DNA of 63,304 nt, filler included, from Hausera hauseri (lineage: Eukaryota), in the NCBI GenBank assembly GCA_046269625.1. It is 12 parts of 12 records of this genome, joined end to end, with 100 filler letters (N's around TTAATTAATTAA, not from the genome) between each part and the next. Parts side by side here need not be neighbours in the genome. Positions count along the whole stretch, not along the records: positions 1 to 9,106 come from JBJURY010461022.1; 11 more parts are not named here. One strand, 5' to 3'. Shown here one piece after another: positions 855 through 59,308 of this stretch (its first letter is position 1; each line of letters opens with the position of its first letter). The position numbers and the translations under genes are program-made. Under the pieces are notes generated by a model. The model did not search any database. It saw only the letters and a program-made list of their open reading frames with translations, and had not been told where the DNA came from.

Positions 855-1625
855 AATCGATGCCATTTGTGAGAATTTGCAGTTTTCTCTCAGGCCGTGT
901 CACATGCAAAACTAGCCGTGTAGACTTTGATAATTCGGAAAGGGCTTGTTTCCTGAATCCGGAAAATAAAGAATACTTATCGGCATTGACCAAATAATCA
1001 AAATTGGACCATAAGGTTTCAGTTTGATTAAGTCTTGGATATACGTTTGTCACCGGAGGCGCAGTTGACACATTGTCATTCGACTGGAATGTGAGTTCAT
1101 CGAGTTCTTCATAAATATTTGATTTATCAAGATTTAGTAACGTTCCCATCACCCGATCTCTCTCGAAGTCGTAGAATAAATACCACCTGCCAAATCGTTA
1201 AATCTCGATCCCGAGAAACTCGCACAGAATCACTGTGCAGCTGTAAAATTTTTGATTGGATTATACCCGTTTGAAATTCACAAATCCATGAGTTCATTTT
1301 ATGTTCGGATGCGGCAGCGAATTTCAACTCCGAGACGGATTCAATTAATGGTTTCAAATAAAACACCCATATTGGTTGTTGAGAACGATTTTTAACCATT
1401 TCAACCTGTTGAAATGCGCTTAAGATGCCAACGAGACTCGGTTTTGAAGATGTATTACTCGTATAAATATAAAGATTACCACTGGAAATGACTACATAGT
1501 ACTTGATCCAATGTTTGAATGAAAGCCAATTAATTTTCCGTTCCAAATAACCGGAATATATTACACTTCGATCTTGTAATAAAGTGTGAACTGGTAATTT
1601 GTAAAAAACACTATTTTGCGCTATG
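844..1625 (-). pseudogene. N-terminal PH-domain protein, SH3BP2-like; degenerate copy
   Basis: Reads LPVHTLLQDRSVIYSGYLERK..W.KYYVVISSGNLYIYTSNTSSKP...FAAASEHKMNSWI, a PH-domain pattern resembling the SH3BP2 N-terminus. The apparent start is ATA (ATA GCG CAA) and the frame changes near 1150. Confidence 0.55.
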
Positions 1626-2749
1626 TTTCTGCAGCAATCAAAATAATCTTAAAAACAAAACTACCACTTTTGAAACTCCACCAAAAAAGACTTTTATTTA
1701 AACAACAAAAAATGTCAAATCAAAAATGACGTTTCGCATGCCAATCATCGATTAAGTGAATGTGGGCACAAGATCACCACCCTCGTGGAAAAGTGAGAAC
1801 CATGAAAGGTAAAAGAGACAGAATGAAAAATCGTAAAACGAAAAAGTGTCTGTCAGCTGGTATTAGTGTGAACAAAACGTTGGGTGCCTTCTATTGATTT
1901 TTCCCTGCTATAATGCTGAATGTGACTCCGCGTGTTTTGTCTTTTTTCGGTGTGTCTGCCTGCAGAGTTTGAAGTTGGGGAAAAATTATCTGATTTTGTT
2001 GTCAGTATTGTGTCATGCAAAGACGGGTCAGAAAGAAGAGAAGATAAAGAATGTGAAGGAGGAAGAGAGATTGTTGAAGACGGATGGTTATAGGAATTCA
2101 AGAAGGTATTAGAAGACGGAGGAATGATACAAGGTGTAGTGGCGAATAAAGGAAGAGAGAGAAAGGTTGGAGTAGAAGTTGGAATGGAATTGTGTGAAAG
2201 AGTGGAAGCGGAAGATGAAGCAGAGGTAGTGGTAGAGAAAGGAAGAGAGATGGGGATAGAAGTAAAGAAATGAGGAAGTTGCGAAGTGGAAATGAAAGGA
2301 GTAAAAGGTGATGTGTCAGGAGAGAGGGAAAAAGAAAACGCCGAATATTAGGATGGTGTGGAAGGAAGAGGAGAGAGATATGATAGCACAGAGGTACAAA
2401 ATGAAAGAGAGCAAGAAGATGCAGTAGGCGAAGGGAAGTAGTTGGGAGATGGTGCGCAAGAGTTTGAAATGATGAAAGGGGTAGATGGAGAGGTTGGTGA
2501 AGTCGAAATGCTGTTTGATGGAGGAAGTACTGAAAAACAGAAAGCAGGTTGTTATGAGGGGATGAAAGAGGTGTGAAAAGGCTTGATGGTGCAAAATCGT
2601 ATGGGGAAAAAGAGGCTGAATTGTGAGAAGATATTGAAGTGGAAGTCTTGGGAGAAAACGTAGGGGAAAGTGGATTAAGAAATTGAGAAAAGATGGACGA
2701 TGAATTATTGGATTGCTGCGCGTCGTGTAAAGATGTTTCTGGAGACGTG

Positions 2750-4300
2750 GCTTTGATGGGAGACGTATCGTCAATGAAGAAGGCCGGTTTAGCATTATTG
2801 ATGTGGACGGTTACTTCTTTGTCGTCTTTGTGAATGATGATGTTATGGGAGTGTAAGCGAATCACTTTGTGAGGGCCGACATACTGAGGTTGAAAACCAT
2901 ACGGCGTCTGATTCTTTAGCCAAGCGAGCTTGGCAGTATGTAAATCTTCGGCTATGTAGGGTTTATTTGCGTGTAACAGTCTGCAAAATGAGTCTTTGCT
3001 GATCTCAACGAAGTGTCTCTTTCGTCTGTCGGCGTATTACCCGGCTCAATCAGCTCGAATAATGATCTGATGGACGTGCAAATAATGCTTCTGCAGGTGA
3101 GCAGCCTGTAGAAGTAGATGGTGTGTTCCGCCAGCCAAGCAGAACGTACGGAAGGAGTGTAGTCCAACTGCGATTGGACTCGGCAAGAATTTTGAGAGAC
3201 GTTTTCATTGTTCGGTGAAAGCTTTCGAGAAGGCCGTTCGATTGTGGATCATATGGTGATGTGTTAATGTGGTTAATTCCCAATCGACTGACAAGAGCTT
3301 TAAACAGGTTGGATTCGAACTGTGAACCTTGGTCCGAAATGATGTGGCGAGGTGATCCAAACCTGCTGATCCAAGTGTGGATGAAAACATCCGCTATGGT
3401 TTCTGCGTTAGTGTTCCGAAGCGGGACAGCTTCTGGCCATCGCGAGGAACGGTCCATTATTGTGAGGATGAACTGATGACCGTTGTCTAAAGGTAATGGG
3501 CCTACAATGTCAATGTGGACAGATTCGAAACGAGACGTGCAGAAAAAATGAAATAGTGATGGTTTTAGGTGCTTAGTAACTTTGTATTTTTGGCATGCCA
3601 CACACTGCCTAACCCATGCCTGCACGTCAGAGCGTATTGACGGCCATACTACTTGGCGCTGTATTAGGCGAAAAGTGTCCTTGTCACCAGGATGATGCAA
3701 GGAATGTATGCTGTGGAACGCTTCCTTTTGAAGCGACTCACAAAGAATAATTTTGGGATTATTAGGTTTGGAGGTGTCAAAGGCCACGCCGTCGATGGTT
3801 TTGCAAGATTTAAAAGATTTAAGGATGTCAGGAAATGGCTGGTTTTGCTGAAGTTTGAATTGAGGAAAAATTGGTGTAAAATCAATCGAGCTGACTGATC
3901 GAGACAAAAAGTCAGCTACTAAATTGTCGACTCCGTTTAAATGTTTAATTTGAAAATTAAATGTTGACAAATATTTTATTAGCCTCTCTTGACGTGGAGA
4001 AGGCAATTTCATGGTGAGAATTTGGAGCAAGGGCTTGTGGTCTGTTTGTATTGTGAAAGCTCGTGCAGCTAACAAATGTTTGAAGTGTTTTACGGCAAGG
4101 ATCATTGCAAGCAACTCTCTGTCAAAGGTGGAATATCTTTGCTCTTGTGCTGTGAATTTTCGAGAAAAGAATTCCAATGGCTCATGGGATCAATTTTTGA
4201 CTTAATGGAGGACAGCACCTGCGGCTGTTGGGGATGCGTCCGTGGTTAAGAAGAGTTTTGCATAGAAGTCTGGATAGGCCAGAATTTCCGCAGTTTTTAA
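2750..4300 (-). pseudogene. RNase H + integrase of family A copy 1
   Basis: TDAS, YSTFDRELLA, TDHKPL, N.VAD.LSR; H..HPG..C..C zinc domain; DDE core (DIVGP, SDQG, ESFHRT). Confidence 0.92.
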
Positions 4301-4345
4301 ATTGTCTTTGAAGTGATCGAAAACGTTGACTAGCTTCGCGGTCCA

Positions 4346-5110
4346 TTAAATGGGCTGTTTCTTCTTGCCAGAGCTTAGTGATGCAAATGGAGCGGTTATA
4401 GTGGAACAGTGCGGAACGTACTTATGAATAAAGTGCAAGGTTCCGAGGAAAGAACGCATCTCTGTCGATGTACGTGGTAGTTGTATGCTTTTGAGCTGTG
4501 TTATGCGGTCTGGCTGAAGTAAATGCTCGGAGGAGCTAATAACATGTCCTAGGAAGTTGACCTTAGGTTGAAAAAAGAAGCATTTAAAGAAACTGATTTG
4601 CAAGTTGTTTTGGTGTGAGCGCTGGAAGATTAAGCGTAAGTGTTCAAAGTGTTGTTTGGAGGAAGATGGTGCAATTAAGATATCATCAATATACAGATAA
4701 GTGAAGTCTAAACCTGAGAGAACTGTATGGATATGCCTTTGGAGGGTCTGGGAAGCGCTACGAAGTCCAAAAGGCATAAAAAGGCATTCGAAAAGGCCGA
4801 AAGGTGTAATGACAGCCGTTTTCGGAATGTCTGCTGGGGCCACCGGAATTTGATGGTATGCTTTGTGTAGATCAATGCAGGAAAACATGGTCGAACTATG
4901 GAGCCTGTGAAGGATATCGTTGAATAATGGTAGAGGGTAGGCATCCATTGTTATGGTGTTGAGTTGACGGTAATCATCGCATGGGCGAAAGGTGCCATCT
5001 TTTTTGGAATCACATGCAGTGGTGAAGACCAGGGGATTTGGATCTTCTGATTATTCCTGATTTTTCCAGTTCGAGAAACTCAGCTTCCACTACCTATCTG
5101 CGACGAGGCG
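4346..5110 (-). pseudogene. Reverse transcriptase of family A copy 1
   Basis: DL.KAYHQIPVAP.DIPKTAVITPFGLFE, YIDDILI, KC.F....V.FLGH. Confidence 0.93.
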
Positions 5111-5949
5111 ATAGCGGGCGAACCTTTTGACGCATTGGTCTTTGATGTGCTGTTACCATGTGATGAAGAATGGATTGAGGTGGTACGAATGATTTGTCTT
5201 TTTGCAACAGACGCGTGCAAGAAAACGAAATGTATTGCTGTAGATCAGAAGGCAACGATGAAAAGTTATCCGATGGTGTCGATGTATCGTGACTGGATGC
5301 AATTGTGGTGTGAGTTGCAGACAAGATGTTGTGACTAGGTGGTATTAGGTGCAGGTTGTTCGTGTTGAAGATGGTGTTGGCAGCTTTGCTATTAGTAATA
5401 GGTGCCACGCAGTTGGCGATATCGTATTTGTCACCGTAGAAAAATTTCTGTATAATGAGTGATTATAAAAATAATTCAAATCGGAAGTCGTTTTTCTCAG
5501 TATTGATTTGTTGGAAACGATCACCCGGATGGTCACCGAAATGGTGCTAATTTCATTAAAATTATTTCCGCACTTTAAGGAACATCGTTTGCAATCTACA
5601 AGTAAATTGTATTGGGACAGAAAGTCTGAACCCAATATAGGTGTGCGTATATTGGCTATTGTAAATTCCCATATGAATGTGTTTGGAAAGTGTGGAAGAT
5701 TGAACGTTAATTTGGTAACTCGAAAAATTTGTAAAGGTTCACCGGACGCAGTGGACAGTTGCTTTTTTGAAGTGAAATTTTTTTTGATGTGCTGTGTTGG
5801 TGATTTCTGCGCCGATGTCTGAGGAAATTGGTGTTTTGCTTCGTTGGAATGAGGGCTGCTGCTTCCAACGTGAATACAGCAAAAGAAATGTGTCGGCTAT
5901 CTTTTTGCAAGTTGTTGCCTTTGCTAGGACTTGCCGTATAGGCATTTTT

Positions 5950-7136
5950 GTTCTTTTGTTCCAAATTTTGAGTAACAGATGCAAATGATGTTGCTTGCAT
6001 TAAAATCGGGAGAGTAAAATGTACAACCGATGCAGCATTTCTGCGAATTATTACCAAATTTGTTATGGTAGTAGCAAATAGACGACCGCGCGGGCGAGAG
6101 CGACCATGGTTGTCGTTGATGAAATATATTAGGGAAAGCAGCCTTAGAAAAACTCCTCGAGGCAGCGTTAACTCATTTAATTTCTCGTTTATGTTATTAA
6201 TTGTCTTTTGCAAAATTTCGTTTTCTGTGCGTAATTGCGCAATTTGTTGCTGCAGCAATACATTTTGTTGGTGGTTTGTTGTTAATGCCGCAGAGACAGT
6301 TGGTGCTGTGTGAGTGTAGCACTTCATAGGCTTTGTCCGCCAGTTCGGCTAGCTTTTCCAGCGCCGTGGAGTCTTCGACCACAGTGAGAAAAGCTCTTAT
6401 TTGAAGGGGCAATGCATTTAAAAAGTAACGGCGAAGAAGTTCTGTACTATGTTCAGATGTTACGCCAAGTGTATTGAGGTAAGACAAAGATGTGCGCAAG
6501 AATTCAGAAGGCTTTTGTAGGTCAATGGCGTTGTCGTTGAAGAATCTTTGAATGATTGAGTCGATTGACGGCTCAGGGAGCTTAAGAACGGCATTATACA
6601 GTTGAGTATATGAGTCGGTGTGATGAAGGATGTCGATGATATGGGTAATTTTAGTTTTGATGGAAGCTGTAAATTAAAAGAGGCTGTTGACTTTGGATAA
6701 GGAGTCGACGACGTTTTGCAATTGGAGCCAGAATTGATGCAGTTTTAGCCAAGTTTGAATAGAGTTTTGGCTATCGAGGAAATATTCTGTGCAAGGTGAA
6801 TGAGTGAGGAGCGTGTTGCGTCGAAGTGTTTGGATCACTTTGTTTGGGTAGGTAAGTGATGGAGATCTGTGGTTTGTTCAGTTTGTCCGTGGTATCAATT
6901 GTGGGTGGTGAATCCATGCCACCACGGATACGGAAGTGAATGTGAAGGCAGACAGAAGTTGTAGAAGGTTGGAGGGGTCCAGCGAAAGGCACTACAGATC
7001 CATTGTGTGTGAGGTAGAAGTCAGAGAAGTGAAGAGAAGTGGAAATGATTTTATGGATGGCAACTGTGTTTCCATGTATTACTGTATGTGTGCTAATGTG
7101 TCTGTTGTTTAGAAAAAAAGGACAAGAAGAGGTCAT
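5950..7136 (-). pseudogene. Ubiquitin-like leader (6918-7136) fused to Gag, frameshifted
   Basis: A 73-aa leader ends LHIHFRIRGG and is followed by MDSPP. Downstream are capsid-like FLNALPLQIRAFL...LEKLAELADK and the CHCC knuckle. Confidence 0.8.
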
Positions 7137-7419
7137 GTGGCCGGGGCGTGTCGTGTGGCCAGGGCGTGTCGTTGGGCGGCAACGAACGGTGCCGTCTGAC
7201 TCAATGGTGCAGGGTGGGCGGCCGGGACCTCAGCCTCGCCGCGGCGGATCCCAAATTCCGGGGTAACCGAGGTCCCAGTTTTTTTGCTGTCTTTTGGAGG
7301 ACTTTAATGGGTTCAAGACCGTCTTTGGACTGGTATGCATCAATAAGTCCGGGTTGAATAAATTTGGCATTAACACCATGGACATTGTGACAATGGGTTT
7401 AATAATTGTTTCTCTTTAG

Positions 7420-7790
7420 TTCGACCCGCATATTATGACATTTGAATGTTTCAGTGGAGGCCTCTGCGAAATGATTAAGAACACGGATGTAGAAATGACT
7501 TGGATTTTTAAAGTGTGAAATCCTAAATTTGATGTATCCCTTATTCGGAAAGACAGGTTTATCAACTTCCAGTTGAAGCATATGACTTTGAGGAAATTCA
7601 CCATGCGCTTTTATTTGCAGACACATTTTATTTACACCCTTTGACTTTTCCTTTGCGAAAGAAAGTCAACTGCTTTGTCACTTAACCAATCTGGTCTCTG
7701 ACAGTCACATGGACTTGAAATCAAACGTAAATAATAAGCATTCATTGAATTGAAGTCATTTGGATTCAGAAAGATATAGGAATGATAGAG
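7420..7790 (-). pseudogene. TDRD12: Intronless fragment resembling TDRD12 (helicase C-terminus, Cys motif, start of extended Tudor)
   Basis: VCLQIKAHGE followed by PNKGYIKFRISHFKNPSHFYIRVLNH resembles TDRD12 LCxxLKAFGxC...GYIKI...NASNYFGRI. Confidence 0.45.
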
Positions 7791-8169
7791 AGATGTCTCT
7801 TTAGTTTTGGATTTAGATGCCGGCGAGAATGGGAATTCAGAAGATGTGCCTTTCAGGAGATTCAGTTGTCGACCGAATGCTTCTTCTGTGACGTCGACGT
7901 GAAGCAATGTACGTACATTATACATCGATATCGCAGTTTGTTCAAAAGCCTCGTCCCAAATAATAAAACGGGTATTTTAACGCATCCCTGATATTGATTG
8001 CACTCCTTCGCAATAACACCCAATTCAGGGGCCAAGAGCATTTTATCCCAGCACCAACGATCATAAATAATTGATAAATTATTATCACTGGGCATTAATT
8101 CGATGTGATAATCAGTTATTACAAGATTGATGAATATTACCTTTACGGGGATAGAGGAATAATGCGAAC

Positions 8170-9106
8170 TTGCCTGGCACCAATTATCCGAATCCAACGT
8201 GACGCAACTATTAAAAGCTCCAGCGGCCTTCCTGTACTCTGATGTTTGCCCGTTTCGTTCGATTTCCTCTCGTATTAAAGTTTCCGCTCGCCCGCGATGA
8301 CCCAATCTAATATGACAATCGATAATTATGTGCCATTGATCCCATGGCAAAACAGCTTCGAGTGCATTTTTTACACAGTTTACGTCGAGATAAACGTTGG
8401 CCAAACACAATTGTAATTTCCAAATTGCTAGAATTCGAGCCAACCAAAACTAAGAAAGCCGATCGCCAGCTGATGGAATTGCAATAAACATCGCTCATCG
8501 TTGTGCTGTTTAGGTTTTCTTCAAACAACGGCAGAGCGATGCGTCTATTACAATTGTCCACGTTGATGTTCGTTTGGCTCCATCACTGAGTGCTGCGGAT
8601 ATAATCGAATCACATTGTTCACCGAGCACATCGTCTTTCGGATGGGCTTGGAAATGTAATTGGCATAGGAGAATTAACACAGCTTGTTCAGCAAGTGACG
8701 GATATTCGAATTCCGGCATGTTATTAAATTTGACTTTATCCATTTGTACCTCGTCATCCAAATAATGATAATTTGGCAGAGTTTTTGATCCAGCATCCGC
8801 CAGTGCATCATTGATAGACTTTCTCGAAGCCTTTTCATCTCGATTTACACTGAGATAAAGTCACGATTTATCGTCGTGTTGGAATTTTATCCGCTTACCC
8901 AATGCTCCTTGAAATTGCGTTTTGAAACCCAACAAAACTTGGCAATGATGAAATAATCTCTCAGCTTCTTCGTCTTGATAATTAAATAGCTGCATGTAGG
9001 ATGCCAATGAATGCACTTGAAATTCGTCCAGAACATCGATTGTATTGTCGCCATCGTTTTCTTTCACAAACTTAGCTTTATCGAGACAATAATTAATTTC
9101 ATCTAA
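8170..9106 (-). pseudogene. TTC27: Intronless, frameshifted fragment of TPR protein TTC27
   Basis: GALGKRIKFQ (TTC27 GALGKRTRFQ), W..IIDCH..LG....AETLIREEIE, YRKAAGAFNSCVTLDSDNW (AAKAFQRCVTLEPDN). Several frameshifts and internal deletions. Confidence 0.75.
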
Positions 9107-9206
9107 NNNNNNNNNNNNNNNNNNNNNNNNNNNNNNNNNNNNNNNNNNNNTTAATTAATTAANNNNNNNNNNNNNNNNNNNNNNNNNNNNNNNNNNNNNN
9201 NNNNNN
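9107..9206. other. Artificial contig linker (N44-TTAATTAATTAA-N44); the same linker occurs 11 times
   Basis: An identical 100-nt spacer with stops in all six frames recurs at 16821, 22623, 26853, 31297, 35694, 39895, 45931, 50083, 54390 and 59209. Confidence 0.98.
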
Positions 9207-13041: not shown

Positions 13042-14370
13042 TCACTTGAATTTCGGTCTTGATTCTTGTCCGAAAGCTCCTGTACTTCCGGGATCGGTTG
13101 CGAGTGGTAGTCGTAATTGATTTCGCAACGTTTTTGGTATCGATCTGTCCTTTATGAATGATTTCTCTGATCCGGTATCTACTAATGCGTAAACTTCCCA
13201 ATCGTCAATACTAATTTTGGCGAAAGATCTACCTTCTTTTATCTTGGGTTGTTTAACGACGGATATCTTGTACCCATTTATACTAATTTCTGGTGCTTTA
13301 TTCTCAGCTACTTGTCTTAATTCCTCAATAGGATATAGTCCATTATTTGCACCGTTTTCGTCGTTTCGATCCGGCGTATTGATGAGCGGTTTTCGGTTGT
13401 TTTGATTATGAAATGATTGCATTTGTGGATTATCGCAAATTAATGATTTAGTTTCTATATTCCGCGAAATCCTCGGATAGTGTATTATCTTGTGATCATC
13501 TGCCGGCTGGCGGCATAATTCGGAGTTTTCCCTGGTTCGGTATATTTTCGGTAACACGCCGTACTGTTTTGTTCCTTCATAGGGATCTTCATAATTGAAA
13601 GGCTTTCGATAGATTTCCGAACTATAGGAGTTAATAGATCTCTTATCGCTGACTTCGTATTGCGGTACCGAAGGGGGTAGCATTGGTAATGGTGGCCTAA
13701 GCGCCTTCCGATTGCTTATCTTGGAGACCGCGTCTCCTCCCTTAGGCTCATCATCATCCGAATCGTTTTTTCGAAATTTTGTATTTCTTTGTCCTATGAA
13801 AAATATAGATTTTCTCTTTCGTTTTCGATTATAATAACCAACGTGTCGCTCCACGTCGCTTTTACATTTGTTTTCTTCGTAAGCCTTCAGAAATTTGCCA
13901 AACGGTGTTATGACCGCGGTCAAAATTTTGCATGAAATTCCGGTTACAGAAAATATTTCATAGCCATTTATGATAGACTGAATTATAGCCTTTACGAGTT
14001 GTACCAGGAAGTAGATGGCTAAAAATCCTGATGCAGCTTTTCCGAAAATTTAAAATCTTCCCCAGATTTTATATAGTATTTCTGTAGTGACTCTTTCATA
14101 ATGATTAGTGTTAGTAGGGATTCCCATTTTGCTGGACAGCGAGTGTCATCTATCACCGTCGACTTGGCTCTATTTAGCTCATGCGTACGCTGTCGAGGGA
14201 AGGCTAAAAATGTCTAAAAGCTTCAATCTCTTTAGGTCTGTAAATCCCTTTACTTGCAGTGTCGGCGAACCTGTTGTCGGGTATATCTTTTAATAAATTT
14301 GTTCCAGGTGTAGATATTATTCCTCAATTTTGCAGACTTACCCAATCTGTCTCACTTCTCTTAAACATAT
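13042..14370 (-). pseudogene. Glycoprotein C-terminal/TM region + linker + aspartic protease in one frame
   Basis: From 14040, KAASGFLAIYFLVQLVKAIIQSIINGYEIFSVTGISCKILTAVITPFGK reads without a stop into ALVDTGSEKSF. One TAA lies just upstream (IWGRF*IFG). Confidence 0.75.
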
Positions 14371-16920: not shown

Positions 16921-17120
16921 GCATATGTTGTTGCTGGGCGATTGCCACGTAGTCAGAAGATAGTTCTGACGGACGACCTTGTTGATATATGCAAACCTGG
17001 TGACGAAATTGATGTTACTGGCATTTTGTGTTTGCAATACGATTCGTCCACAAATATCAAACATGGATTTCCTGCGTTCGATATTTATATCCTCGTCAAT
17101 AACCTCATAAAAACTGTCGA
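16921..17120 (+). pseudogene. MCM2: MCM2 fragment (OB-fold region)
   Basis: GRLPRSQKIVLTDDLVDICKPGDEIDVTGI...YD.S.NIKHGFPAF...ILVNN matches MCM2 GRLPRS..ILL.DLVDSCKPGDEIELTGIY...YDGSLN..NGFPVF. Confidence 0.85.
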
Positions 17121-17283
17121 ACAACTCATCCTCAGTAAACTAAACGATGAAACTTATCAAAACACCGAATTCAAACAGGCATTGGCTCACTATCGCGTAA
17201 CTGTCGGAATTTGCCTTGAGAATAGGTTGTTAATCACACCAAGAATTTTGGCCAGCAAGGCTCAGGCCCTAAGTCAGGTGCCG

Positions 17284-17394
17284 TGCATCAACAATGATTC
17301 ATTGCACCCTGACGCTGCATTTGTCATAAAAGACAATGGCGAACGAATTGGTCTGAAGAGACGGACAGCTACATCAGACGTTCGATTACAATTC
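17284..17394 (+). pseudogene. POLR2A: Short fragment of RNA polymerase II largest subunit (RPB1)
   Basis: DSLHPDAAFVIKDNGERIGLK...TSDVRLQ versus RPB1 [20 protein letters not shown]...SDLHLQ. Confidence 0.65.
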
Positions 17395-17595
17395 ATTCGA
17401 CACACCACTTTACATATAATGCCAACGATGTCGCACCGAATGATTTCGTACTTTCCGGCAATACTCAGATCTTTACGGGATAACACCGTGTTGAACACGC
17501 GCCTCGACGAGTTCGGAACCCAAATTATCACTTTCGAACGTAAGCCGATTAATGATACATTTATATTTTCTGTAAATATTTCTAAATTTCCACTA

Positions 17596-17754
17596 CCCGA
17601 AGCTTACCAACTTCTCAAAAGTCGAATTCGTAATTTAATTTGTTTACACTTTTATGGCTTAGTCTACAAGTTAGTTAGGAAGTACAAGGAAGCCACGAAA
17701 TTTTATCCGAAAATTTTAAAATTGGCTCAAGAGTTCAGTCAGCCGTTGCGTGAT
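17596..17754 (+). pseudogene. NAA15: Short TPR fragment of NatA auxiliary subunit NAA15
   Basis: EAYQLLK...ICLHFYGLVYKLVRKYKEATKFYPKILKLAQEFSQPLRD versus NAA15 EAYELVR...[39 protein letters not shown]. Confidence 0.7.
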
Positions 17755-17756
17755 TT

Positions 17757-20700
17757 CTGGGGAAACTCGGGCACCCCGTATTTTCGTGCCCGCCCTGCCG
17801 GGGCGGGAACCCCGACCGCCAACTCTGCGCCGGTCGGTCGGGGGCACCTTCGATATCGGCCCTAAGTCACGCTTCCAGGTGCACCACTACTTCCCCATTT
17901 CCCTTTTCTTTTATAATAACACCTACATATATACGGCCCACATAAAACACCTATACATTTCCACTCTTCAGACCCGCATCTCTTCCCTTGGGTCTTCTGA
18001 CTTCTTTCTTACTCATCACGACGCTATCATTTATCATAACGAAATTTTTTCTTTTCCCAATCGAACTTGCTTCAACATACATCTGCGTATCCGTGGTGGA
18101 ATGAATTCCCCACCATCTATCGACACCACGGATACAACTACCACAAAAAACCAATACCCATCCTTTATTACTGTAAACCTAGCCCACCACTCTCTTTAAT
18201 CGATGCAAATCTCCATAAAAAATCTACCAACACTCCTCACTGCACTGAATACTTCATCGATAACGAAAAGTCCAGTAAGACGTGGCTTCATTTCCACCAA
18301 CTCTGTTTACAGTCTAATGGCATCACAGAATCCTTATCTAAGGCCCACAGCTTACTCTATCTTCTCCCAAGCTCAATAAAAGCATTAATACATAACTTGT
18401 TAGAGGTCTTTCAGAACCCTGATCCATATACCCAACTCTTCGATGCTGTCTTAAAACAGACCGAACCCTCCATTGACTCCATAATGCAGCGTTTCTTTAA
18501 CGAAAAATCCACTTGGCACGCAAAAATCCAGTGACTTCTTACGTACTTCATTAGAATACTTGCGTACTCTTGGCGTCACTAGGGAACATAACCCGGATTT
18601 TCTACGCCATTATTTTATGAACGCCATACCTAACCAAATCCGGGCCCTTCTTACCGTGGTGGGAGACTCCACGCCGCTTGAAAAATTGGCCGAATTGGCC
18701 GACAGAACATACGATGTCCTTCACATAAATTCACAACCAGTAGTTTCAGCAGCAGTTGCTACTAACGACACACAAACACTTAACACACCAATACAACATC
18801 AGCTAAATCAGGTACGTGCTGAAAATATTGCACTGCAGGCAACTATCAACAACATAAATAATAAACTAAATGAATTGTCTTTGTCCCGACGATGGGGTTT
18901 TGCTGATGACCGTACCCGTTCTGCGTCACGAAACCGCTCACCATCGCTTGCTCGTGCGTCGATCTGCTATTATCACCGCAGATTTGACACTAATGCCCAG
19001 AAGTGCTGCATAGGATGCACTTTTTATAATCAGAAGTTTTCCTCGGACACCGTTATCTGCATCTAATATGCAAGGTTCAAAAATCAAGCTCGTAGATGTC
19101 TTCCAGGCTGCACTTTCAAATCCAACACGAATAACGGACGTACTGCCTTTCCTTCTAATAGTCGTCCTAATTCTCCTTTTCAAAAGGCTAATTTCGCCAC
19201 TAGAGGCCACGGCAAACTCTGACAAAGGCACGCCTTCACATTCTGAACGCCGACACGTCTTCTTCGCTGTTTTCACCTTAAAGGCTGCAATCACTGCTCC
19301 TACTACGCAATCTGTTGACTTGCTTATTGACACAGGTGCAGATATTTCTCTATTACCGCAAACCTTTACTGTTCAAAACTCTCCATTCAAACTTCAGCCC
19401 TTACACACTGCTTCAGGCCAACCGCTGCACATCTCTGGAATGGTTAAATTATCTTTTACTCTTTAAATTTTCCAACACCTTTCCGTTGGACGTTCACAGT
19501 CGCTAACGTCCAGTCGGCAATTCTAGGATCTGACTTTCATTCACATTATAATCTACTGGTTGACTGCAGCCACCGATGTCTCAGGAACAGCACCGCTGGC
19601 CGCATTTCTGAGCATGTACATAGCATTTCGACTACCGCGCAGTCGACCGGAAAGCGGAGGTCAATATTAAAAATTCTATGAATAATTCAATTTTTATAAC
19701 GATAATTCTATTCGTAAATTTTTAAATAACAATACTGACATTCGATCGAAGTTCAATGTCGACAATTGTGGTACTGCTACCAACGTTCACTCATTCGACT
19801 AAAATACTTCAGCCAACACCATTTTCAACTCAACCATTTTGCACCAAATTCCACTTGCCTGCACATCATCTAACAACTCATAAATTGCATCTGCTACTAC
19901 TCAAGCCGTTTCACCACTTTCACCGAATCTCTCACAGCTACCTACAACTTTTCAACAGTTCATCAACACATCTTGCCCACGCGTACTTAAAAAGACCGTA
20001 CTTTTACCCCCGCAAACAGCACCTTACACCACATAGTCCCACAACACCAACGTCTAATACGCCAAAAAGTACGGCCTCTGTCACCTCGCCGTAGACATAC
20101 CGCAGAAGCCGAATTTCTTGAGCTCGAACGTTCCAGCATTGTACGCCGTTCCAAATCTCCCTAGTCATCACCGTTACACGTTGTGCAAAAAAAGGATAGT
20201 ACTTTTAGACCGTGCGATGACTACCGACAGCTTAACAACTTGACCATCATGGACGCATATCCTTTACCACTCATCAAGAATATTTTGCATCGCCTTAATT
20301 CAACCACCATATATTCAACCATTGATCTAACTAAAGCATACCATCAGATACCGGTAGCACCCGAAGACATTAAAAAAACCGCAGTAACTACTCCTTTTGG
20401 CCTCTACGAATACCTATTCATGCCATTCGGTTTGCGGAATGCCGCACAAACTTTTCAGCGGCACATTGATTCCATTCTTTCCGATTTCTCGTTTGCACAC
20501 CCTTATATCGACGAAATTTTAGTCGTTTCATCTTCGGCCAAACAACACGAAGAACACATTCGAGCAATATTTCAACGTCTCCACCACCATAATCTACAAA
20601 TCAACCTTGATAAATGCCAATTTTTCAAAAAACGCATTAACTTTTTAAGCCACGTTATCAAACCAAACGGCCATTCCCCACAATCAGACCGAGTCGAAGC

Positions 20701-22622
20701 TCTTAAAAACATCCAATTGCCACGTACGACCACCAAAATGCGTTGCTTCCTTGGCACACTCTACTTTGTACATAAATATGTGCCATATTGCTCGGAATTA
20801 ACAGCTCCATTCGCACACCTAAGCGGCGGAAAAAAACATCAACGAATTTAATAAACACGTGAATTGGTTGACAAATTCGACAAATTATGTGACGGAATTA
20901 AAACCGTCGACATTCTAGCTTCTTCCAAACCTGAAGCAGAACTTATCCTCACCACAGACGCCTTAACCACCTCAGTAGGCGCTGTACTCCACAAGGTCTG
21001 CAAGGAAGAAAACCAACCATTGGAATTTTTTTGTCGCAAACTAACCGCACCTGAAACCAGGTATTCCACGTTCGATAGAGAACTGTTGGCAATCGTTTTA
21101 GCCCTCAAACATTTCTCACACTTACTCGTCGCTCGTCATTTCACTCTACAAACCGATTACAAACCCTTACTTAACATCATGGCCATAAAACACCCTTCCA
21201 CACGCGAAGAACGGCAAATATCATACTTATCAACATTTAACTTCGAAATTAAACATATTAACGGAGTTAACAATTTAGTTGCTGATTTTATATCGAGGTC
21301 GGTTAGTTCGATTAATTTTTTACCGATCTTTACGCAAGAACAACTTCAACAGAATCAGTCACCTCAAGACATGCTTAAGTCTTTTAAATCTTGCACAATC
21401 GTTGACGGCGTGGCTTTAGACACCTCTAAATTAGGCAATTCAGTAATAATTCTCGCACCTTCATTGCAAAGGCAAGCATTTCACCACGTGCATTCACTAC
21501 AGCCACTTTTCATCTATTGCACCGACAGGTAATATGGCCGTCAATGCGTTTTGATGTGCAGGCATGGGTTAAGGAGTGTGTGGCATGCCAAAAATACAAA
21601 ACAACTAAGCATTTAAAGCCACCATTATTTCACTTTCCCTGCATATCGCGTTTCGAGTCCGTGCATATTGACACCGTTGGCCCTCTTCTTCCATACAACG
21701 GTCATCAATTCATACTCATCATGATGGACCGTTCATCGCAATGGCCAAAATCCATCGCTTTGCGAAGCACTAACACGACACCATAGCTGACGTTTTCATT
21801 CGCACATGGATTAGCATGTTCGGATCACCTCGCTTCATCATCACGGATCAGGGTCCACATTTTGAGTTCAACCTGTTCAAATCCCTCGTTAACCGACTGG
21901 GGATCCACCACTTACATACTACGCCTTATCATCATCAATCGAATAACCTCCTAGAACGTTTCCACCGTACATTGAAAACGTCACTAAGAATTCTCGCAGA
22001 GTCTAACAGTAGATGGACCAATCTTCTTCCGTTCGTTTTGCTTGGCTGGCGGAACACTCCGTCCACTTTTACAGGATGCTCACCTACTGAAGCCTTATTC
22101 GGAGTTCCTGTCCGATCATTATTCGAACTGACCGCCCCAGACGACACTCCCACGGATGAGACGATACGGGCGGCGCAAAATCACTTCGTCGAGGTTAGCA
22201 AGGATTCGTTTTGCAGGATACTTCACAAAAATAAAACATACCTACCTGAACATTTGTACACAGCTAAATTCGTATGGCTGAAAAATCAGGCTCCTTGCGG
22301 TTTCCAGCCACGGCACCTGGGGCCCTATAAACTTATGCAGCTACACTCGCATAACGCCATCATCTCCAAAGACGGTAAAGACTTCACAGTACACATCGCC
22401 AACCTAAATCCAGCTTTCCTTGTCGACGACACCTTACTACCTGATACGCCAACTTCTTTTCTTACTCCTCCACTCCCTGCTATCCCTACATCTATTACTA
22501 TACCACTTCCACCTTTCTCGTCTGCGCCAAGTCTTGCTCCATCATTTCCTACACGTCTTCCTTCTATTCCTACCAATCTTCCTATCTCTACCACTACCTC
22601 TGTATCATCTCCTTCCACTCTT
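17757..22622 (+). mobile_element. Ty3/Gypsy CsRn1-like (family A copy 2), decayed; UBL-gag-PR-RT-RH-IN
   Basis: UBL ends HLRIRGG (18100) followed by MNSPP; Gag CHCC (CYYHRRFDTNAQKCCIGC); protease LLIDTGADISLLP; RT 20183-20851 (YIDE); RH 20864-21300; IN 21517-22430; Pro/Ser-rich tail. Colinear with copy 1. Confidence 0.93.
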
Positions 22623-24614: not shown

Positions 24615-25403
24615 TCATCCGCGTAAGTCCGCTTCCGAATCCGATTCATCTCGCGGAGGTCGCGGGTCAAAGTGGTATGATGTAGTGGGTCTTTGGGGAA
24701 ATATTTCTACTATCTTTTTACTCTTTCCATTAGAGAAATATCTTAGTCTGGTAGCTTCCGCTGTACATACTGGACAAGTCGTTTTCCCGTTTTTCAGGGT
24801 CCACGTTTCTAAACAGTACCGACAGTACTTGTGGGTACAATCCATATTATCCAATACTAAAAATCCTTGGTATAGATTTGCATCGCAAACGGGGTATTCC
24901 TCTTTTTCACCTCCATCTATATCTACTAGTTTTTCATCAATTTCAATTCGTTCGAACACGAGTCCTTTTTTGTCTTGGTATAAATATCCATATAGTCGTT
25001 TTTGTTTAGCATCTATAGAGCTTTTCTTGGGGTCGTCTGACACGGTAAACAAGGTCCATTCAACGATTTCTTGTTCATTCAAGTCGGGTATTCCGGTTCT
25101 CTTGTATTGCCTCTTAAGTTTTACTCGAACTTGGGTATCCACTGGGATAATTAGCCGATTGGTTCCGTTTTTCGACTGAAATATCGGGGCTAGGTATTTA
25201 CCAATGGTTATGACTTTTCGGACGTATCCGTTTCCGCTTACAATTTTTCTAGGAACAGTAGAGACATAGAATATGGCTTCTTGGATCTTACTCTTGCTAT
25301 AATATTCAGCCATGACGAGTATGCGGGTATATTCTTTAACCTGGCCGAATTTGGTTACTATAATTGGGGTTGGTTCTTCCCATTTTATTCGAAGTACATT
25401 CAT
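24615..25403 (-). CDS. Accessory ORF with C-terminal RING finger (first Cys replaced by Tyr)
   Basis: YPVC-x12-CTH-x2-CRYC-x12-CPVC at 24765-24896, a C3HC4 pattern. Confidence 0.7.
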   Translation of the reverse strand: MNVLRIKWEEPTPIIVTKFGQVKEYTRILVMAEYYSKSKIQEAIFYVSTVPRKIVSGNGYVRKVITIGKYLAPIFQSKNGTNRLIIPVDTQVRVKLKRQYKRTGIPDLNEQEIVEWTLFTVSDDPKKSSIDAKQKRLYGYLYQDKKGLVFERIEIDEKLVDIDGGEKEEYPVCDANLYQGFLVLDNMDCTHKYCRYCLETWTLKNGKTTCPVCTAEATRLRYFSNGKSKKIVEIFPQRPTTSYHFDPRPPRDESDSEADLRG

Positions 25404-25675
25404 CTCTGTTTTGGGTAGTCCGCATTTGGGTGTTTTAGTTCTTGGTTCGTTGGATTTTTCGGCTTCCTGTCGTTTTAGTTCTTCCGTGGGTTTTGTTGTT
25501 TCTTTTTCATTAATGGATATACGACTGCGAGTTGACGGTTTAATCCCTTCAACCTGGTTCCTACTGGTCTTACTTTTCTTTTTACTAATATATTCAAAGA
25601 AGGAAGTTTTCGCCTTTTGTCTTCTCGGTAGCTCTCCAGTATTCGGTTTCGGTCCTTCCAGTGTCTTTTGAGGGG

Positions 25676-26611
25676 TTAATCCAATCTCAGTTCGAGTCTG
25701 ACCGATTGATGAATTTTGCTAATTGCTGGACGTTTCAACTGGGTTGTTTTGAACTGTAACCTAGAACCGTTATGTCCTTGGAGCTCAATTTGTCTATATA
25801 TTGGATATTCACTAAATTCCTTTCGGAAGTTTTGAATCAAGGTCTTTGGGTTATTGTCAGACATCATATTCAGTCGGGGTTCTCTTGGTTTCCACTCGTG
25901 TTCCCATCTTAAGGAAATATAAATGTCTCTTATAAGTCGCGTTCGTTGACTTTCTGCCATCAATTTGGGAAATCTGAATTGTTTGCCATTCATGGCTTCT
26001 ATCAACATATTGAACTGCGATTCACGTGATGCTGAAGGAAGCAGACATCCTTTTTTTCTCATTAGGCTGTTCTCCACTTGGCTTATAACAGTTGGATTGC
26101 GACTTAGTTCCCGAATTCCTGCTGTGTATTCCTGTCTAATTCCTAGCCTTTCTAGCACTTCATGTACTCTGAATCCAGTTACAACGAATCCGTATAAGCA
26201 ATGGCTTATGTCTTCCTGGATTTCTAAGAAATCCTTGCCTTTTTCAAGTTGACATTTTGTGATTCCGGTAACGTCGGAAAATGTATCCTTAATTTTGTTT
26301 CGAGGTGCGATTATTTTGTTTGTGAGTTCTTCTCCCTTTACACTTCGAATAGAGACTTTAATTGGTGTGTACCAACCATCATCCTTCTCTCCATAATTTA
26401 CGGCTAAAATTCGAATATTCCGGCCGTCTGGAACTAATCTGAAGGACTCTACACTTTGTTCAATCTCATCTTCCGAGGGCTTCTGCATGCATAATAGGCG
26501 TGGTAACAGTTTCATTATTTCAGTCCGTAGGGTTAGTTCGAACATCAATTTGGTCTGAAGTTTAGCAACTCGAAATTCCAAGGTATGGTCCATAAGACTG
26601 TAACAACACAA
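25676..26611 (-). CDS. Accessory ORF with REX4/ISG20-like DEDDh exonuclease fold, catalytic residues not conserved
   Basis: VSIRSVKGEELTNKIIAPRNKIKDTFSDVTGITKCQLEKGKDFLEIQEDISHCLYGFVVTGF follows the REX4 pattern VSIV...G..L....V.P...I.D..T..SGIT...L..A..F..VQ..V..LL.G.ILVGH. The ExoI DxE position reads NYG. Confidence 0.6.
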   Translation of the reverse strand: MCCYSLMDHTLEFRVAKLQTKLMFELTLRTEIMKLLPRLLCMQKPSEDEIEQSVESFRLVPDGRNIRILAVNYGEKDDGWYTPIKVSIRSVKGEELTNKIIAPRNKIKDTFSDVTGITKCQLEKGKDFLEIQEDISHCLYGFVVTGFRVHEVLERLGIRQEYTAGIRELSRNPTVISQVENSLMRKKGCLLPSASRESQFNMLIEAMNGKQFRFPKLMAESQRTRLIRDIYISLRWEHEWKPREPRLNMMSDNNPKTLIQNFRKEFSEYPIYRQIELQGHNGSRLQFKTTQLKRPAISKIHQSVRLELRLD

Positions 26612-30920: not shown

Positions 30921-31034
30921 ACTGAACTCGGTGGAGCTACATGTAAAACGTGGGATTAAAGCATAACACTATTAATAATCAATTACTTCATATTACTGAG
31001 TAGTAGTAGTATGGCAAGAGTGATGCATTAGATT

Positions 31035-54489: not shown

Positions 54490-55072
54490 TGCGTATAATG
54501 GTCGGAGTGTTGAAAGATATCCAGTAAGTTATGGATTGAGTTCTTTATAGAGTTTGGTAGAAGATACAGTAGATTATGGGCTTTGGATAACGAGTCTGTG
54601 ATACCGTTGGACCGTAGCCATAGTTGATGGAAGTGTAGCCAAGTTTTGCTAGAATTTTCGTTGTCTATAAAGTATTAGGTGCAACGTGAGGAAGTACTGA
54701 TAGGATTTTTGTGGGAAGAATTTGTATTGGTTGAAGTAGGTGGATGGCTTGGTTTGGGGTAGTAGAGAATGGACTTCGGTTTTGTGGTTGTCTTATCGGT
54801 GCTGTCACTAGTTGATGGAGAAGTCATGCCGCCACGGATTCTAAAATTGATATGTATACATAGATAGTTATTTGAGGCCATGATTTTGGGAGGTCGATTA
54901 AAATGCATCCGTTGAGGGTCGAGTAAAAATCATTATAGGCGATAGCTTTACGAATGAGGTCATGTAATTGTAATGTATCGATACGGTTTGTGGTATTTGT
55001 GGCATGTATGAATTTGTTATTAGCAAAAAGGTTGATGGGAAATGACGTTGATAAACAACAAGCTTGGTCATG
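54490..55072 (-). mobile_element. 5' part of family A copy 3: UBL leader + Gag start
   Basis: FPINLFANNKFI...NDFYSTLNG / CIHINFRIRGG|MTSPSTSD, then YFIDNENSSKTWLHFHQLWL homologous to copies 1 and 2. Confidence 0.85.
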
Positions 55073-56129
55073 TTGTATCTCATAGTTTATCTCGTGTTTT
55101 GTCACGACAAGTTTAATTCCGTCAGTGTACAGTTGCAGGTGTTGTAAGACCCACAGAGTTCCTTCTTACGATTTGTCCGATCACTTGTGCGTCAAGGAAC
55201 CTTTTGTAAGCGTCTGTACCTACCTCGGTGAATGGTGTGTCGTATGAGGAATCAGTATTGTGCGTGTAGAGTAGAAATTTATGAAAACCCAGTCTCACAG
55301 ACCAATCAGCTAGATAATGTTTATGAACAAAAGACTCACAAAAGGCATCGAGATGCCCCTCGGACAAGTCTGGGGACGTATCAAACAGATGAACACCAGT
55401 AATTAGTTGAATAGTGGTGCCGACAAGGCATTCCATTCTTTTGTCTCTGAACCTACTCGATCGTGTTTCATGTCGGAAAGAAATGTGCGACGGTGCAAAT
55501 GTACAATTGCTTATCTGGTCGTCACTCGTTTGACGTAATGTAGTAAATGTAATTGTGGTAAATGTGGACTTGTTCAGTAATCGACTTGACGTATATAACG
55601 AGAAATTCGCTACACATTTCCACGTGGAATAGCATTATCGCATTGTAAGATTGGTGTTTCATTATAATGTCTTCAAACGATTATTTCTGTTTCAAAGATG
55701 TTGACGTGTGTACGGATGTGGTGAGGACACTGATATTCTTCACGGATTTATTCGAAAAGTAACGATAATTCAGATAAAAACTACTATTGTGAACATACGA
55801 CAAAATAAGGCCTTGAATTCGAGGAATATGGGGACAAAGTAAAATTTCTATTGGCTTATATTGACCTTTTGGCATGCTACTTGTATTTTGATTCAGATGC
55901 ATTGGTTGCAATTGTGCTGCTCTCAGTTTTCAGATCCGATTTTGACACAACCACTTTAACACCATACAGCATATTCGGCCTATTTGTGTCATCAGTCAGA
56001 ACAATGTTATAGAAATCTGGACGTCCGTGTTGTTCTGATTCTACAGGTGCATCTCATTGGAAAGTCGAATGCTGTGCACCTCTACTAGACAAGTTTGCAT
56101 ATGAAGGAACATTAGGCACAAATAATTTG

Positions 56130-57752
56130 GTCTTTATCAGCAGTTGTTTTACGTTAACATACATTTGCCGATCGTCAAAAAGCAATTGCATATCACCTAG
56201 GGAATTCTGGTGATTTGATGTCGAGTAAATGGCCATGATTTTCTGCAATGTCTCTTCAGATTGTCGTTTGCAATTGAACCAAACTGAAAGATTAATTTGT
56301 ACAAGCCGACATTGATTTGGAGTAAGAGCAATGTCAGAAGTTGCAGATTCGTCATAAGTTTTGTAATTCATATACAATGACTTGTACAGATAGGATACAA
56401 GAGGATCACCTGAGCCGTACCTTATCGGTTCATCTAATGTTAGCTCGTACAATCAACCTTGTGAATTTTGCTGAAGCTTGTGCAAAGCACTTCCAGCTGT
56501 AATCAATGTGAAGTTTTTTCGAAATTCTTCAAACAGCTTTGTTGCTAAAGTTCTCCCAGTTCCCTTATATCCAGAAACCGTTGTCGAGACAAACACAAGA
56601 CCATAGCAATAACGAAGATACATGTTGATAATATGCAATGGAATGGCCGCTGCTTCATAAATACACGACAGATTACAGTCCAACGACTCTGTTTCCGATG
56701 GTTCAACATAACGAATAATTTGAGAAAATTTCTCTCGTTTTAATTCGAGTTTCGTTATGACTTTTGTCTTATTATCAAACTGTGATGTCGTGTTTTCGTA
56801 ATCAACGTGTTCCGAATATTCAAACGCCTTCCACTTCAATCCCAATTTCACAAACTGCCATGAAGTAATAATGTTTGTCGGACTTGGAAATGTTACACAA
56901 ATCCGCCCAACACCGATCTGAAGCGCAGCACATAATGCCATGCCCAATGGTGCGGATTTTCCGCGACCACGAGTAGCAGTAACGAGGACTGTTATGGGCT
57001 GTTGTAAACCGTTGTCGTTTACATTAACGTGATGAACAAATGGTCTTAACTCTCTGAATAGAGTACACAAACAATGGGCCTGATCATAAGTGGCACAGTG
57101 ATTTACTAGTGGGAAAAAAACAGAATCCGAGACCCTTAATTAATCCTTCAAACAACTCAAATCTTCCTTCTTCTTCGTATTTGTATGTTTTTATGATTTG
57201 TCGTTTTCTTCGAAACTTCCAATTCAAATTTATCATTTAATCAGAAGCAAAAATTTTCTTTTAAAAGCGACAATGTAAACCTACGTAAAAAATGTTTACC
57301 ACTTGACTTCACAAATGGCAATTTATGCAATGGGGGCGTTAAGAATATAACAATTCCTTCTCCAGAAACGGTTTCTATACAGCGTGCAATCGTATTCGGC
57401 GTAAGCAATTCATAATCTTCAAAAATACAAATATCGAACGTTTGTCCGAGAATATTTTGAGTTTCCTCATACAAACACCATTTTATGCTGCACGAACAAT
57501 TTTTCAGATATTTTTTTCGACATAATAACGCGTGTTTTTGGTCAGTTTTTTGCCAGTAGCTTCTTGCTTATGCTTTTTGTTATCCTTCACATAGCAATAA
57601 AGAATATTTTTTGGTCTTTGCTTTTCAATAAAGTTACAAACAACACCAAGACATTTTTGATTATTTTGACCGGTTAAATAAATCACGGTCCGGTAATGAA
57701 CTTTAATTGAAATTTTGATCCAATCAAATATTTGACTCTGAATAGTATTCAT
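56130..57752 (-). pseudogene. NAT10: Intronless degenerate N-terminal half of RNA cytidine acetyltransferase NAT10/Kre33
   Basis: YEETQNILGQTF.ICIFEDYELLTPNTIARCIETVSG; TATRGRGKSAPLG; EAAAIPL; GYKGTGRTL; LDEPIRYGSGDP; SEETLQKIMAIY.TS.HQNS..D.QLL.D. Stops and frameshifts, no introns recognised. Confidence 0.9.
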
Positions 57753-57774
57753 TAAAATTTGATTTGTACCAAAG

Positions 57775-58300
57775 GATTTGGAAACTGCATTTACAGCTCC
57801 AGTTTTTGGATACCGGTATTTCTCTATACCAAACCCACCGGTATATTCTGAAATGCATATTTCATTAACCATGCTTTCGTCGTATTCTTCGACCAAGTGA
57901 TAAAAATTTGTCTCTTCCTCTTTGGTTCTCCACCAATTACCAATAAATCGATTGAATTCTGCCTGTATAATAAAATGTGTAGAACCGGTTGCTGTATGTG
58001 GACCATTGAAAGGTAGCTGTTTCTCGTTATTATTAATAATATCGATGACAAAACGTTATTTTCTTTGACAAATGATAACAATCTCCAATTTAAAGGATTT
58101 CTTGAAAGCCCCGTAGCATATTCTATAACAAGAGTCTGCATTGAACAGTAATCACATATCCATTTTCCAGAGTACTGGAATAAAACCACCTGTCATAAGA
58201 AAAAGTCGGATTTTTACTTTCTGAATGGTAATGAAAAAATTTTACACCACATGCGCTACTTATTCTTTTATGGATTAATATTTCGGCCAAGGTTTTGGGT
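57775..58300 (-). pseudogene. DPP9: Intronless fragment of dipeptidyl peptidase DPP8/DPP9 beta-propeller
   Basis: GSTHFIIQAEFNRFIGNWW (alternate frame; DPP9 ATFVIQEEFDRFTGYWW), EEYDESMV, YRYPKTGAVN. Confidence 0.75.
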
Positions 58301-58559
58301 TTCTTTGTTACTTTAACTCTGATAATTTTAGCCCTGAAGATGTCAAAGACAGCTATGACGTACGGCGAATTCGCTTCATTGTCCGTATATTCATGATCAG
58401 TGACATTATAAATTTCCATGTAGACAGATCCCTTATGCCACAAATCCTTCTGACATGACGGTACAAGCGACACAGCGCATCTGAACACGATACAAATGAA
58501 TTTCAAAACGAAATTTGTCACAGTGACGACCCACAACGAATGCCGAACAGAACGGAGTC

Positions 58560-58793
58560 CATTTGATATATAAAACAAAAACAATTCCCTATATAATTTA
58601 TCCGATAAATAGATATAATACAACGAAATATGCGGCTGATGAGAAATATAACAATCCAAAATGTTTCGAAACGATATTTTATCATATTCGTTTTAAAAGA
58701 AATATCGGTAAAAGTAGAATCCGCTAGATGAAACAATAACAAAAAGGCCCCAGATACGATAATTCCGTCAAAATGATTAAACAGAACTTTCAA
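58560..58793 (-). pseudogene. Fragment of a voltage-sensor-like transmembrane domain (S3-S4)
   Basis: HFDGIIVSGAFLL (S3-like) followed by LISRIFRCIISIYR (Arg-spaced, S4-like). Confidence 0.4.
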
Positions 58794-58879
58794 AAGAATA
58801 ACAATACATCCAGAAGCGTTGGTGAATGTTTTAAAAGATGTTTGAAAGACAAATTATGATGATCATGGGACATAGAAAA

Positions 58880-59074
58880 TTCCACCAGAAATGGTCTCTG
58901 TTCGTAATGTAACGTAACTTTACACCAGTTAAAATAATAATTTTCGCACAAAATAAGCTTTTTCACATTGAAATTTACTAGTAGCTGAACACCATCCTTA
59001 ATATCGTCAAATTTAATGCTTCGTGCGGAGAAATTCTGATGAAGTTTAATTATGTTATAGTGCCTCAATGTCAA
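58880..59074 (-). pseudogene. Possible UHRF1 tandem-Tudor fragment
   Basis: SARSIKFDDIKDGVQLLVNFNV resembles UHRF ARTIIKW.DL.VG.VVM.NYN. The match is short and weak. Confidence 0.3.
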
Positions 59075-59308
59075 ATCAACAGTATCAATGATTCAGGAAA
59101 ATAACGATTCAGACCTTTTATAACTCAATCTAGGATTTTTAGCTACACCAAGAAGTTTACTAATCCACGAAATTTTCATCTTCAATTTTAATTGATGTTG
59201 GTAAATGCNNNNNNNNNNNNNNNNNNNNNNNNNNNNNNNNNNNNNNNNNNNNTTAATTAATTAANNNNNNNNNNNNNNNNNNNNNNNNNNNNNNNNNNNN
59301 NNNNNNNN

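Follow-up and report, generated by a model that had tools for sequence, protein, structure and literature searches.

The capture of host mRNAs through LTR elements is already known from scattered animal loci. Tan et al. 2016 described a template switching mechanism, and for flies, mosquito, fish, chicken and mammals the accessible part of their paper reports LTR-mediated retroposition, including secondary retroposition and retrocopies with more than one parent (PMC5131818). In the cases covered there, the retrocopy replaces a part of the internal ORFs, the element is found on both sides of it and multi-parent retrocopies are a minority.

The Gypsy elements of the CsRn1 clade have a CX2HX9CX3C gag motif as their signature, according to the portion of PMC2582038 at hand. 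Described members are 4–6 kb long with LTRs of 146–368 bp and a clear tRNA-Trp primer-binding site in the available parts of two papers (PMC2582038, PMC3630058). Burro, a giant Gypsy of planarians, has fixed domains in one polyprotein, a gag of the CCHC type and an env that sits between gag and pol, as far as the consulted part of its source goes (PMC6431247).

Here we analysed a 63,304-nucleotide stretch from Hausera hauseri (GCA_046269625.1), called the window below. It is made up of 12 contigs of 4–9 kb joined by artificial linkers, one of them at 9107..9206 (N44, 12 bases, N44) and 10 more elsewhere in the window. Since the joining is artificial, neighbours across a linker carry no meaning. 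The first contig is 1–9106 and holds copy 1 of an element family, here family A, that is bounded on both sides by the contig ends.

Family A is best explained as a decayed CsRn1-like Gypsy retrotransposon of a flatworm. The core of copy 1 (1853..6917, minus strand) comprises gag, RT, RNase H, integrase (5005–3245, minus) and a low-complexity tail. It follows the Ty3/Gypsy domain order of RT, RNase H and integrase by Pfam and is interrupted by stops and frameshifts. Copy 2 (17758..22622, plus) extends from the leader to the contig end, has a broken core and is 68% identical to copy 1 over 2.4 kb of pol; gag to integrase is present in both. Copy 3 is represented by its start (54490..55042, minus), with a stretch ending in RIRGG and the gag start, and is without the GC-rich leader.

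All six frames of the window together contain the CX2HX9CX3C gag motif twice, once in copy 1 (at 6076) and once in copy 2. The integrase is followed by GPH in copy 1 and GPY in copy 2, as read from the DNA with no profile match. Pfam finds no fusion-protein family in any of the three sense frames across the copy 1 core.

Relatives of family A occur at two of 33 metagenome loci (L001, 576–4214, and L002, 692–4546) with 53% identity, and their pol frames are stop-free over 1213 and 1285 codons. Both contigs begin within gag, so they are uninformative on the 5′ end. In copy 1 the integrase region 3041–3648 reaches a depth of 58,000–95,000, severalfold above the remaining core, perhaps coming from a derived short element.

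The window contains other repeats as well. In a second Gypsy family, a domain of viral fusion glycoproteins (Pfam Monjiviricetes_fusion) lies in frame just before the protease, an arrangement as described for Burro. The sites concerned are 13045–14049 (minus), 37690–38984 (minus) and 48574–49176 (plus), the domain being present on a third contig too. Tigger/pogo-type transposases (DDE_1) lie at 40778–42555 (minus) and 51409–53352 (minus) on contigs of 35% and 44% GC, and the contig of the latter has an 85-base direct repeat.

A satellite of 62–63-base units with higher-order spacing occupies 31397–35693, and 24618–26653 (minus) contains a pair of long frames, of which the second has a RING finger at its end. 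The stretch 31000–31296 (minus) has no Pfam match and presumably looks like the last part of the Maverick/Polinton capsid protein. The 3′ flank of copy 1 is cut by a separate repeat at 1–848, whose depth is 2,500–12,500 times that of a single contig. This repeat contains a short-intron-like 45-base GT..AG stretch on the plus strand, and its plus frames have no Pfam match.

Beside its core, each of the three family A copies has a mosaic of host-gene fragments. In copy 1 the 5′ cargo begins with a TTC27 fragment (8150..9106, minus), which is cut by the contig end, truncated mid-protein and intron-free, with a short gap and a gap of ~75 residues. The read-through of 8159–9106 (minus) has 316 codons with 4 stops and gives 233 matches at E≤0.001 by HMMER against 1.84 billion representatives, the best at 3e-57. 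Among the 10 best clusters that were looked up, 6 include members named TTC27, which upholds the decayed TTC27 that the first-pass annotation placed at 8170–9106. A word-based homologue search with the fragment found no match, unlike the full HMMER scan, and the PDB holds no match for it.

The TTC27 homology maps to 9088–8237 and 8248–8180, with weak homology on to ~8150. It corresponds to residues 113–412 and then 486–508 of the closest relative, so ~75 residues are absent without any DNA between the flanking parts, and the last 220 residues, the C-terminal part, are nowhere in the window. In a quick tree of 55 of 151 rows (P0001–P0055), the fragment groups with two unnamed proteins in a clade that holds four named flatworm proteins (SH-aLRT 100). 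Hence it comes from a flatworm host.

Two of the four TTC27 stops fall within a short segment whose homologous residues appear to lie in another frame. An alternative genetic code was considered and rejected, as the four stops use all three stop codons at different residues. We compared the window with the contigs of two sequencing runs (X1 and X2) at 80% likeness, with 16 records listed of 29,020. Record 8, a contig of X1, is identical to 8327–9106 over 780 bases without a difference, so the stops are real in the DNA, with X1 being a possible source of the assembly itself. Record 16, of X2, is identical over 257 bases. A parent TTC27 gene is not among the listed contigs at 80% likeness, an outcome that a filter and short exons can produce.

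Next to TTC27 follows a coding-like stretch (~7670–8150), for which the first-pass annotation had offered no identity; Pfam, PDB and feature searches likewise give no firm one and only two weak leads. One is a possible NOMO-like fragment (8039..8128, minus) in the same open frame as the TTC27 end, with Pfam NOMO_6th at E 0.063, short of the cut-off. The other is an open frame of 114 codons (7635..7976, minus), which has no Pfam family and a sulfotransferase-like feature score of 0.95 at a low shared count (146 of 256 features). For residues 95–195 of the middle stretch the feature search scores at most 0.84, the PDB returns five rows at chance level and none of 116 candidates scored, so these searches lend the NOMO-like lead no support.

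The piece adjoining the leader (7280..7665, minus) was earlier labelled TDRD12-like. We take it to resemble a Tudor domain by impression, and the TDRD12 name is left unconfirmed: the frame has no Pfam family at E≤0.05 and no meaningful PDB match, with four rows at chance level, and the literature on TDRD12 in planarians offered nothing usable for it. On the 3′ side of copy 1, a PH-domain fragment (1271..1564, minus; Pfam PH, E 1.7e-10) lies on the same strand. It begins ~200 bases past an imperfect purine-rich tract followed by TG (1770..1785, minus), in which 9 of 11 bases are purines as read by eye.

The 5′ cargo of copy 2 (16921..17757, plus) lies in one stop-free frame. It consists of an MCM2 fragment (16927–17157, plus; E 3.5e-16), a coding-like middle with a weak RPB1 match (17158–17595, plus; E 0.028) and a weak NAA15-like piece (17596–17757, plus; E 0.0026). 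As a separate observation, 16921–17865 (plus) is a stop-free frame of 314 codons running through at least two parent genes and into the leader, despite the broken core of copy 2.

The 5′ cargo of copy 3 (55130..59208, minus) is >4 kb long. It contains a DPP-IV-type N-terminal piece (DPPIV_N, 58052–57516, minus), NAT10 (57618–56174, minus) and an RNase III-like piece short of the cut-off (55487–55221, minus), besides coding-like stretches without identity at 58123–58692 and 55560–56170 (both minus). In all three copies, the far side of the 5′ cargo is a contig end, and element sequence is visible on one side of the cargo only.

The flanks of the three copies are mutually unrelated. All six fragments with a match (TTC27, PH, MCM2, DPPIV_N, NAT10 and, below the cut-off, RNase III) are sense to their own element, in line with the same-strand arrangement first reported for copy 1, and Pfam has no match in any of 15 antisense flank frames. 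The earlier idea that copy 1 exemplifies a repeated capture pattern is thereby strengthened, with three copies having three unrelated same-strand mosaics of host fragments and a paralogue having the same junction. This suggests that family A regularly takes up fragments of host mRNAs and carries them along.

The paralogue is seen in record 7 of X1 (421 nt), which spans the joint of leader and cargo. It covers 7212–7577, where it differs from the window at 55 positions in 367 nt and has 3 gaps, being 15% diverged, and so represents another copy with the same leader/cargo joint. Summed contig depth, expressed in multiples of the depth of record 8, is not equal to copy number, so only its steps are used as evidence. 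The core bins computed are 217–1367 and the leader bin is 123. Across 7297–8208 the values are 12, 12 and 8, followed by 2.4, 1.3 and 1.0 towards 9106, and the PH side is at 49–65 times single-contig depth.

The depth steps and the paralogue together mean that the nearest cargo has multiplied with the element, by whatever route, and that distal TTC27 has not. Moreover, the depth suggests that hundreds of related cores exist. The first-pass annotation would have been overturned if the flank were ordinary intron-containing host genes hit by an LTR-truncated element. Distal TTC27 at single-contig depth would suit such genes. Nevertheless, the ~10-fold depth and the paralogue over the proximal part cannot come from ordinary genes interrupted by an insertion. 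The stops confirmed in record 8, the ~75-residue gap, the missing C-terminal part and the unrelated pieces adjoining without intergenic space speak against them too, so this reading is largely refuted and keeps hardly any probability.

Another concern is an assembly chimera, in which short reads fused different paralogues or unrelated pseudogenes. The contigs are short and full of repeats, the whole stretch is not covered by any single listed piece and 7882–8327 is bridged by none of the 16 records listed of 29,020. Against this, record 7 comes from a further copy and runs across the key junction, records 8 and 16 match without any difference over the lengths given above, and the same layout recurs on three contigs. 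We thus regard a chimera as very improbable.

Whether the templates were spliced RNAs bears on the vehicle of capture. No intron is found in 852 nt of TTC27 or in 823 bases of the NAT10 helicase part. The mean coding exon is 302 nt in another flatworm (PMC13238120, Table 1, a partial source), and at this length intron absence by chance is ~0.06 for each and 0.004 for both, a rough estimate from another species. The closest TTC27 relative, P0003, is likewise unbroken over the same stretch, which weakens the reading of intron absence as RNA origin.

Near the end of the TTC27 fragment, 9 of 59 covering homologues leave the family pattern, several of them exactly at one site, which by its alignment is probably a conserved intron. 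The window reads past the site for ~11 codons, and only 24 of 6389 control windows score as high, in a test picked after the alignment had been seen, with a gap allowed and with overlapping control windows. A spliced template is therefore likely rather than proven, and the intron data show it weakly.

This weakness leaves some room for another vehicle, such as a Helitron, a Maverick, LINE-type template jumping or segmental duplication, having made or spread the mosaics. Family A cores would have joined later, lost their LTRs and been duplicated along as DNA. The genome is rich in other elements, and a paralogue diverged by 15% could equally well stem from a DNA duplication of long ago. In such a history, unrelated insertions must all have lost their LTRs at one identical point and each of the four flanks seen must share a single orientation, and Pfam reveals no hallmark of another element in the flanks. 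We consider it rather improbable.

Our best explanation, held with middling confidence, is template switching onto host mRNAs in an element whose true termini lie beyond the contigs. Host mRNAs would be packaged in the same particle as the element RNA, and the reverse transcriptase of family A would jump between the element RNA and host mRNAs and then back. Several unrelated mRNAs would be copied in sense and joined mid-domain, sometimes with internal deletion. The cargo would lie inside the transposed unit, upstream of leader-gag and downstream of pol, with the working termini further out than the contigs, >1.8 kb in copy 1 and >4 kb in copy 3.

The product would then integrate and could transpose again. 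Older captures beside the core would be common to several copies, and newer distal ones such as TTC27 would be private. The switching, the position of the termini and this order of capture are what we infer from the layout. The sense-strand GC skew is −0.35 in the core versus 0.02 in the 5′ flank, a composition shift at the boundary.

In copy 1 the leader is GC-rich (7125..7279, minus) and common to copy 2, with a likeness score of 27 that 0 of 40 shuffles reach. Both leaders hold a relic of a tRNA-Trp primer-binding site with 3 mismatches of 12, at the homologous positions 7258–7269 and 17768–17779. The window has no match to this site with fewer than 2 mismatches and no tRNA gene. Self-priming or a conserved leader hairpin is unsupported (z −0.45 and −1.62).

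In both copies the change between cargo and leader lies ~10 bases 5′ of the relic, and their cargo-to-leader switch points are within ~10 bases of each other. This near-fixed boundary counts against the internal capture of our best explanation, which can account for it only by a hot spot. It would suit a cargo that is itself the LTR, where strong-stop DNA, between U5 and U3, jumps by way of host mRNAs. Each LTR would then be a multi-kilobase mRNA mosaic with only short tips derived from the element, having the Tudor-like piece on its U5 side and the PH piece on its U3 side, and would exceed the contig.

The distance of ~200 bases from purine tract and TG to the PH piece agrees with such an LTR, as do the multi-contig depths of both flanks beside the core. 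An LTR of >2.8 kb would give no overlap here, and Ogre LTRs reach 1.9–6.5 kb in the seen part of PMC6431247. On the other side, site matches of relic quality are no commoner than chance, 50 observed versus 67 expected in the window. In copy 3 the leader is absent and the cargo extends as far as the RIRGG stretch, the depth of the two sides differs fivefold, and 8817–9106 is at own-locus depth with no twin LTR, a weak point as contigs show presence and not absence. A cargo that is the LTR is thus unlikely, while being the most serious of the alternatives.

The 5′ and 3′ flanks of copy 1 have no sequence in common by blastn at word 7, and their local alignment scores 25 against a shuffle mean of 23.6, with 10 of 40 shuffles as high. 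The two tests agree with the earlier statement that no LTR pair is detectable. As 9106 is a contig end and a contig of X1 extends 71 bases beyond it, this absence is established within 1.8 kb only. No outer LTR, outer primer site or target-site duplication is seen on these contigs, so a cargo enclosed between termini belongs to the model rather than to the observations.

The first-pass annotation went further in stating that the mosaic replaces the 5′ LTR. With a primer site that is a mere relic, a leaderless copy 3 and a contig that ends within TTC27, this claim does not stand as shown. It had offered two options, very long LTRs built from captured sequence or a 5′ LTR beyond the contig. Because of the relic site, the leaderless copy 3 and the twinless distal TTC27, we rank termini beyond the contigs above the cargo as LTR; hence the second option is favoured and the first is possible without being demonstrated.

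A bolder variant is that family A has no fixed LTRs at all, with mosaic mRNA termini renewed each round and a ubiquitin-like module freeing gag after RIRGG. We hold it to be speculative and improbable. The possible ubiquitin-like stretch (6918..7127, minus) ends in RIRGG directly before a gag-like Met, and matching stretches are at 17891–18100 (plus) in copy 2, where it is naturally stop-free, and at 54828–55042 (minus) in copy 3. The six frames of the window contain R[IL]RGG three times, and in every case the next residue is the gag-like Met of a family A copy.

A profile of the three pieces matches the ubiquitin tail weakly (per-domain E in hundreds or more) and SDE2 at E 0.26. The stretch has no Pfam match and no single-sequence PDB match. 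Its models are poor (pLDDT 46.5 and 45.5), with no Foldseek match at E≤0.001; ubiquitin-like entries make up 16 of the 46 Foldseek rows listed, all insignificant. The available part of PMC3597677 makes no mention of ubiquitin or SUMO. A cleavable ubiquitin-like module is hence a lead, not a result; if the stretch is such a module, gag would tolerate any frame fused upstream.

What is new here is a different multi-gene cargo beside the core in 3 of 3 copies seen. If the pattern is genome-wide, the family offers many natural junctions for testing template switching, its hot spots and how fast exons are shuffled, and it supplies pseudogene fragments able to mislead annotation and phylogenomics in the lineage. 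If the cargo is the LTR, the view of what an LTR needs would change. With mosaic LTRs in hundreds of copies, the family would act as a permanent exon shuffler and would archive the transcriptome of the germline.

A literature search, mostly among papers outside subscription, found no published description of this cargo layout. The main text of a Dugesia preprint (10.64898/2025.12.11.693146), seen in part, yielded no passage on gene capture.

Among other carriers of foreign sequence, the ORF3s of bdelloid LTR elements are likewise foreign coding sequences in a transposon, but they are whole recurring enzymes or env, unlike the cargo of family A (PMC5408684, in its accessible part). Pack-MULEs and Helitrons bear multi-gene mosaics like those of family A, yet are DNA transposons (PMC6431247, in part), and neither is found in the family A flanks. 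Family A resembles Burro as a flatworm Gypsy loaded with host-like domains (same source), whereas its cargo is variable and decayed, its gag is CHCC and no fusion protein matches. It is not Burro, to which family B of the window is closer than family A.

With the CsRn1 clade (PwRn1, AgCR, CsRn1_Cv1), as covered by the consulted portions of PMC2582038 and PMC3630058, family A shares the CHCC gag in copies 1 and 2, the RT-RH-IN order and possibly a GPY-like motif after integrase. It differs from the described members in the relic primer site, the lack of a short LTR pair within 1.8 kb and the RIRGG-ending stretch before gag.

The closest likeness in cargo is to the cases of Tan et al. 2016 and to maize Bs1 as cited there. 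In the accessible part of that paper, these are partial mRNA copies with several parents per locus, fused to an LTR element and multiplied later with it (PMC5131818). The TTC27 fragment is such a partial copy of a host gene, and the nearest cargo has multiplied further with its element. In copies 1 and 2, however, the cargo does not replace internal ORFs and flanks a core in which gag to integrase is present. Family A thus departs from those cases in having cargo in 3 of 3 copies seen, from other genes in each and with no outer element sequence visible, while sharing with them the fusion of fragments from several host genes to one LTR element.
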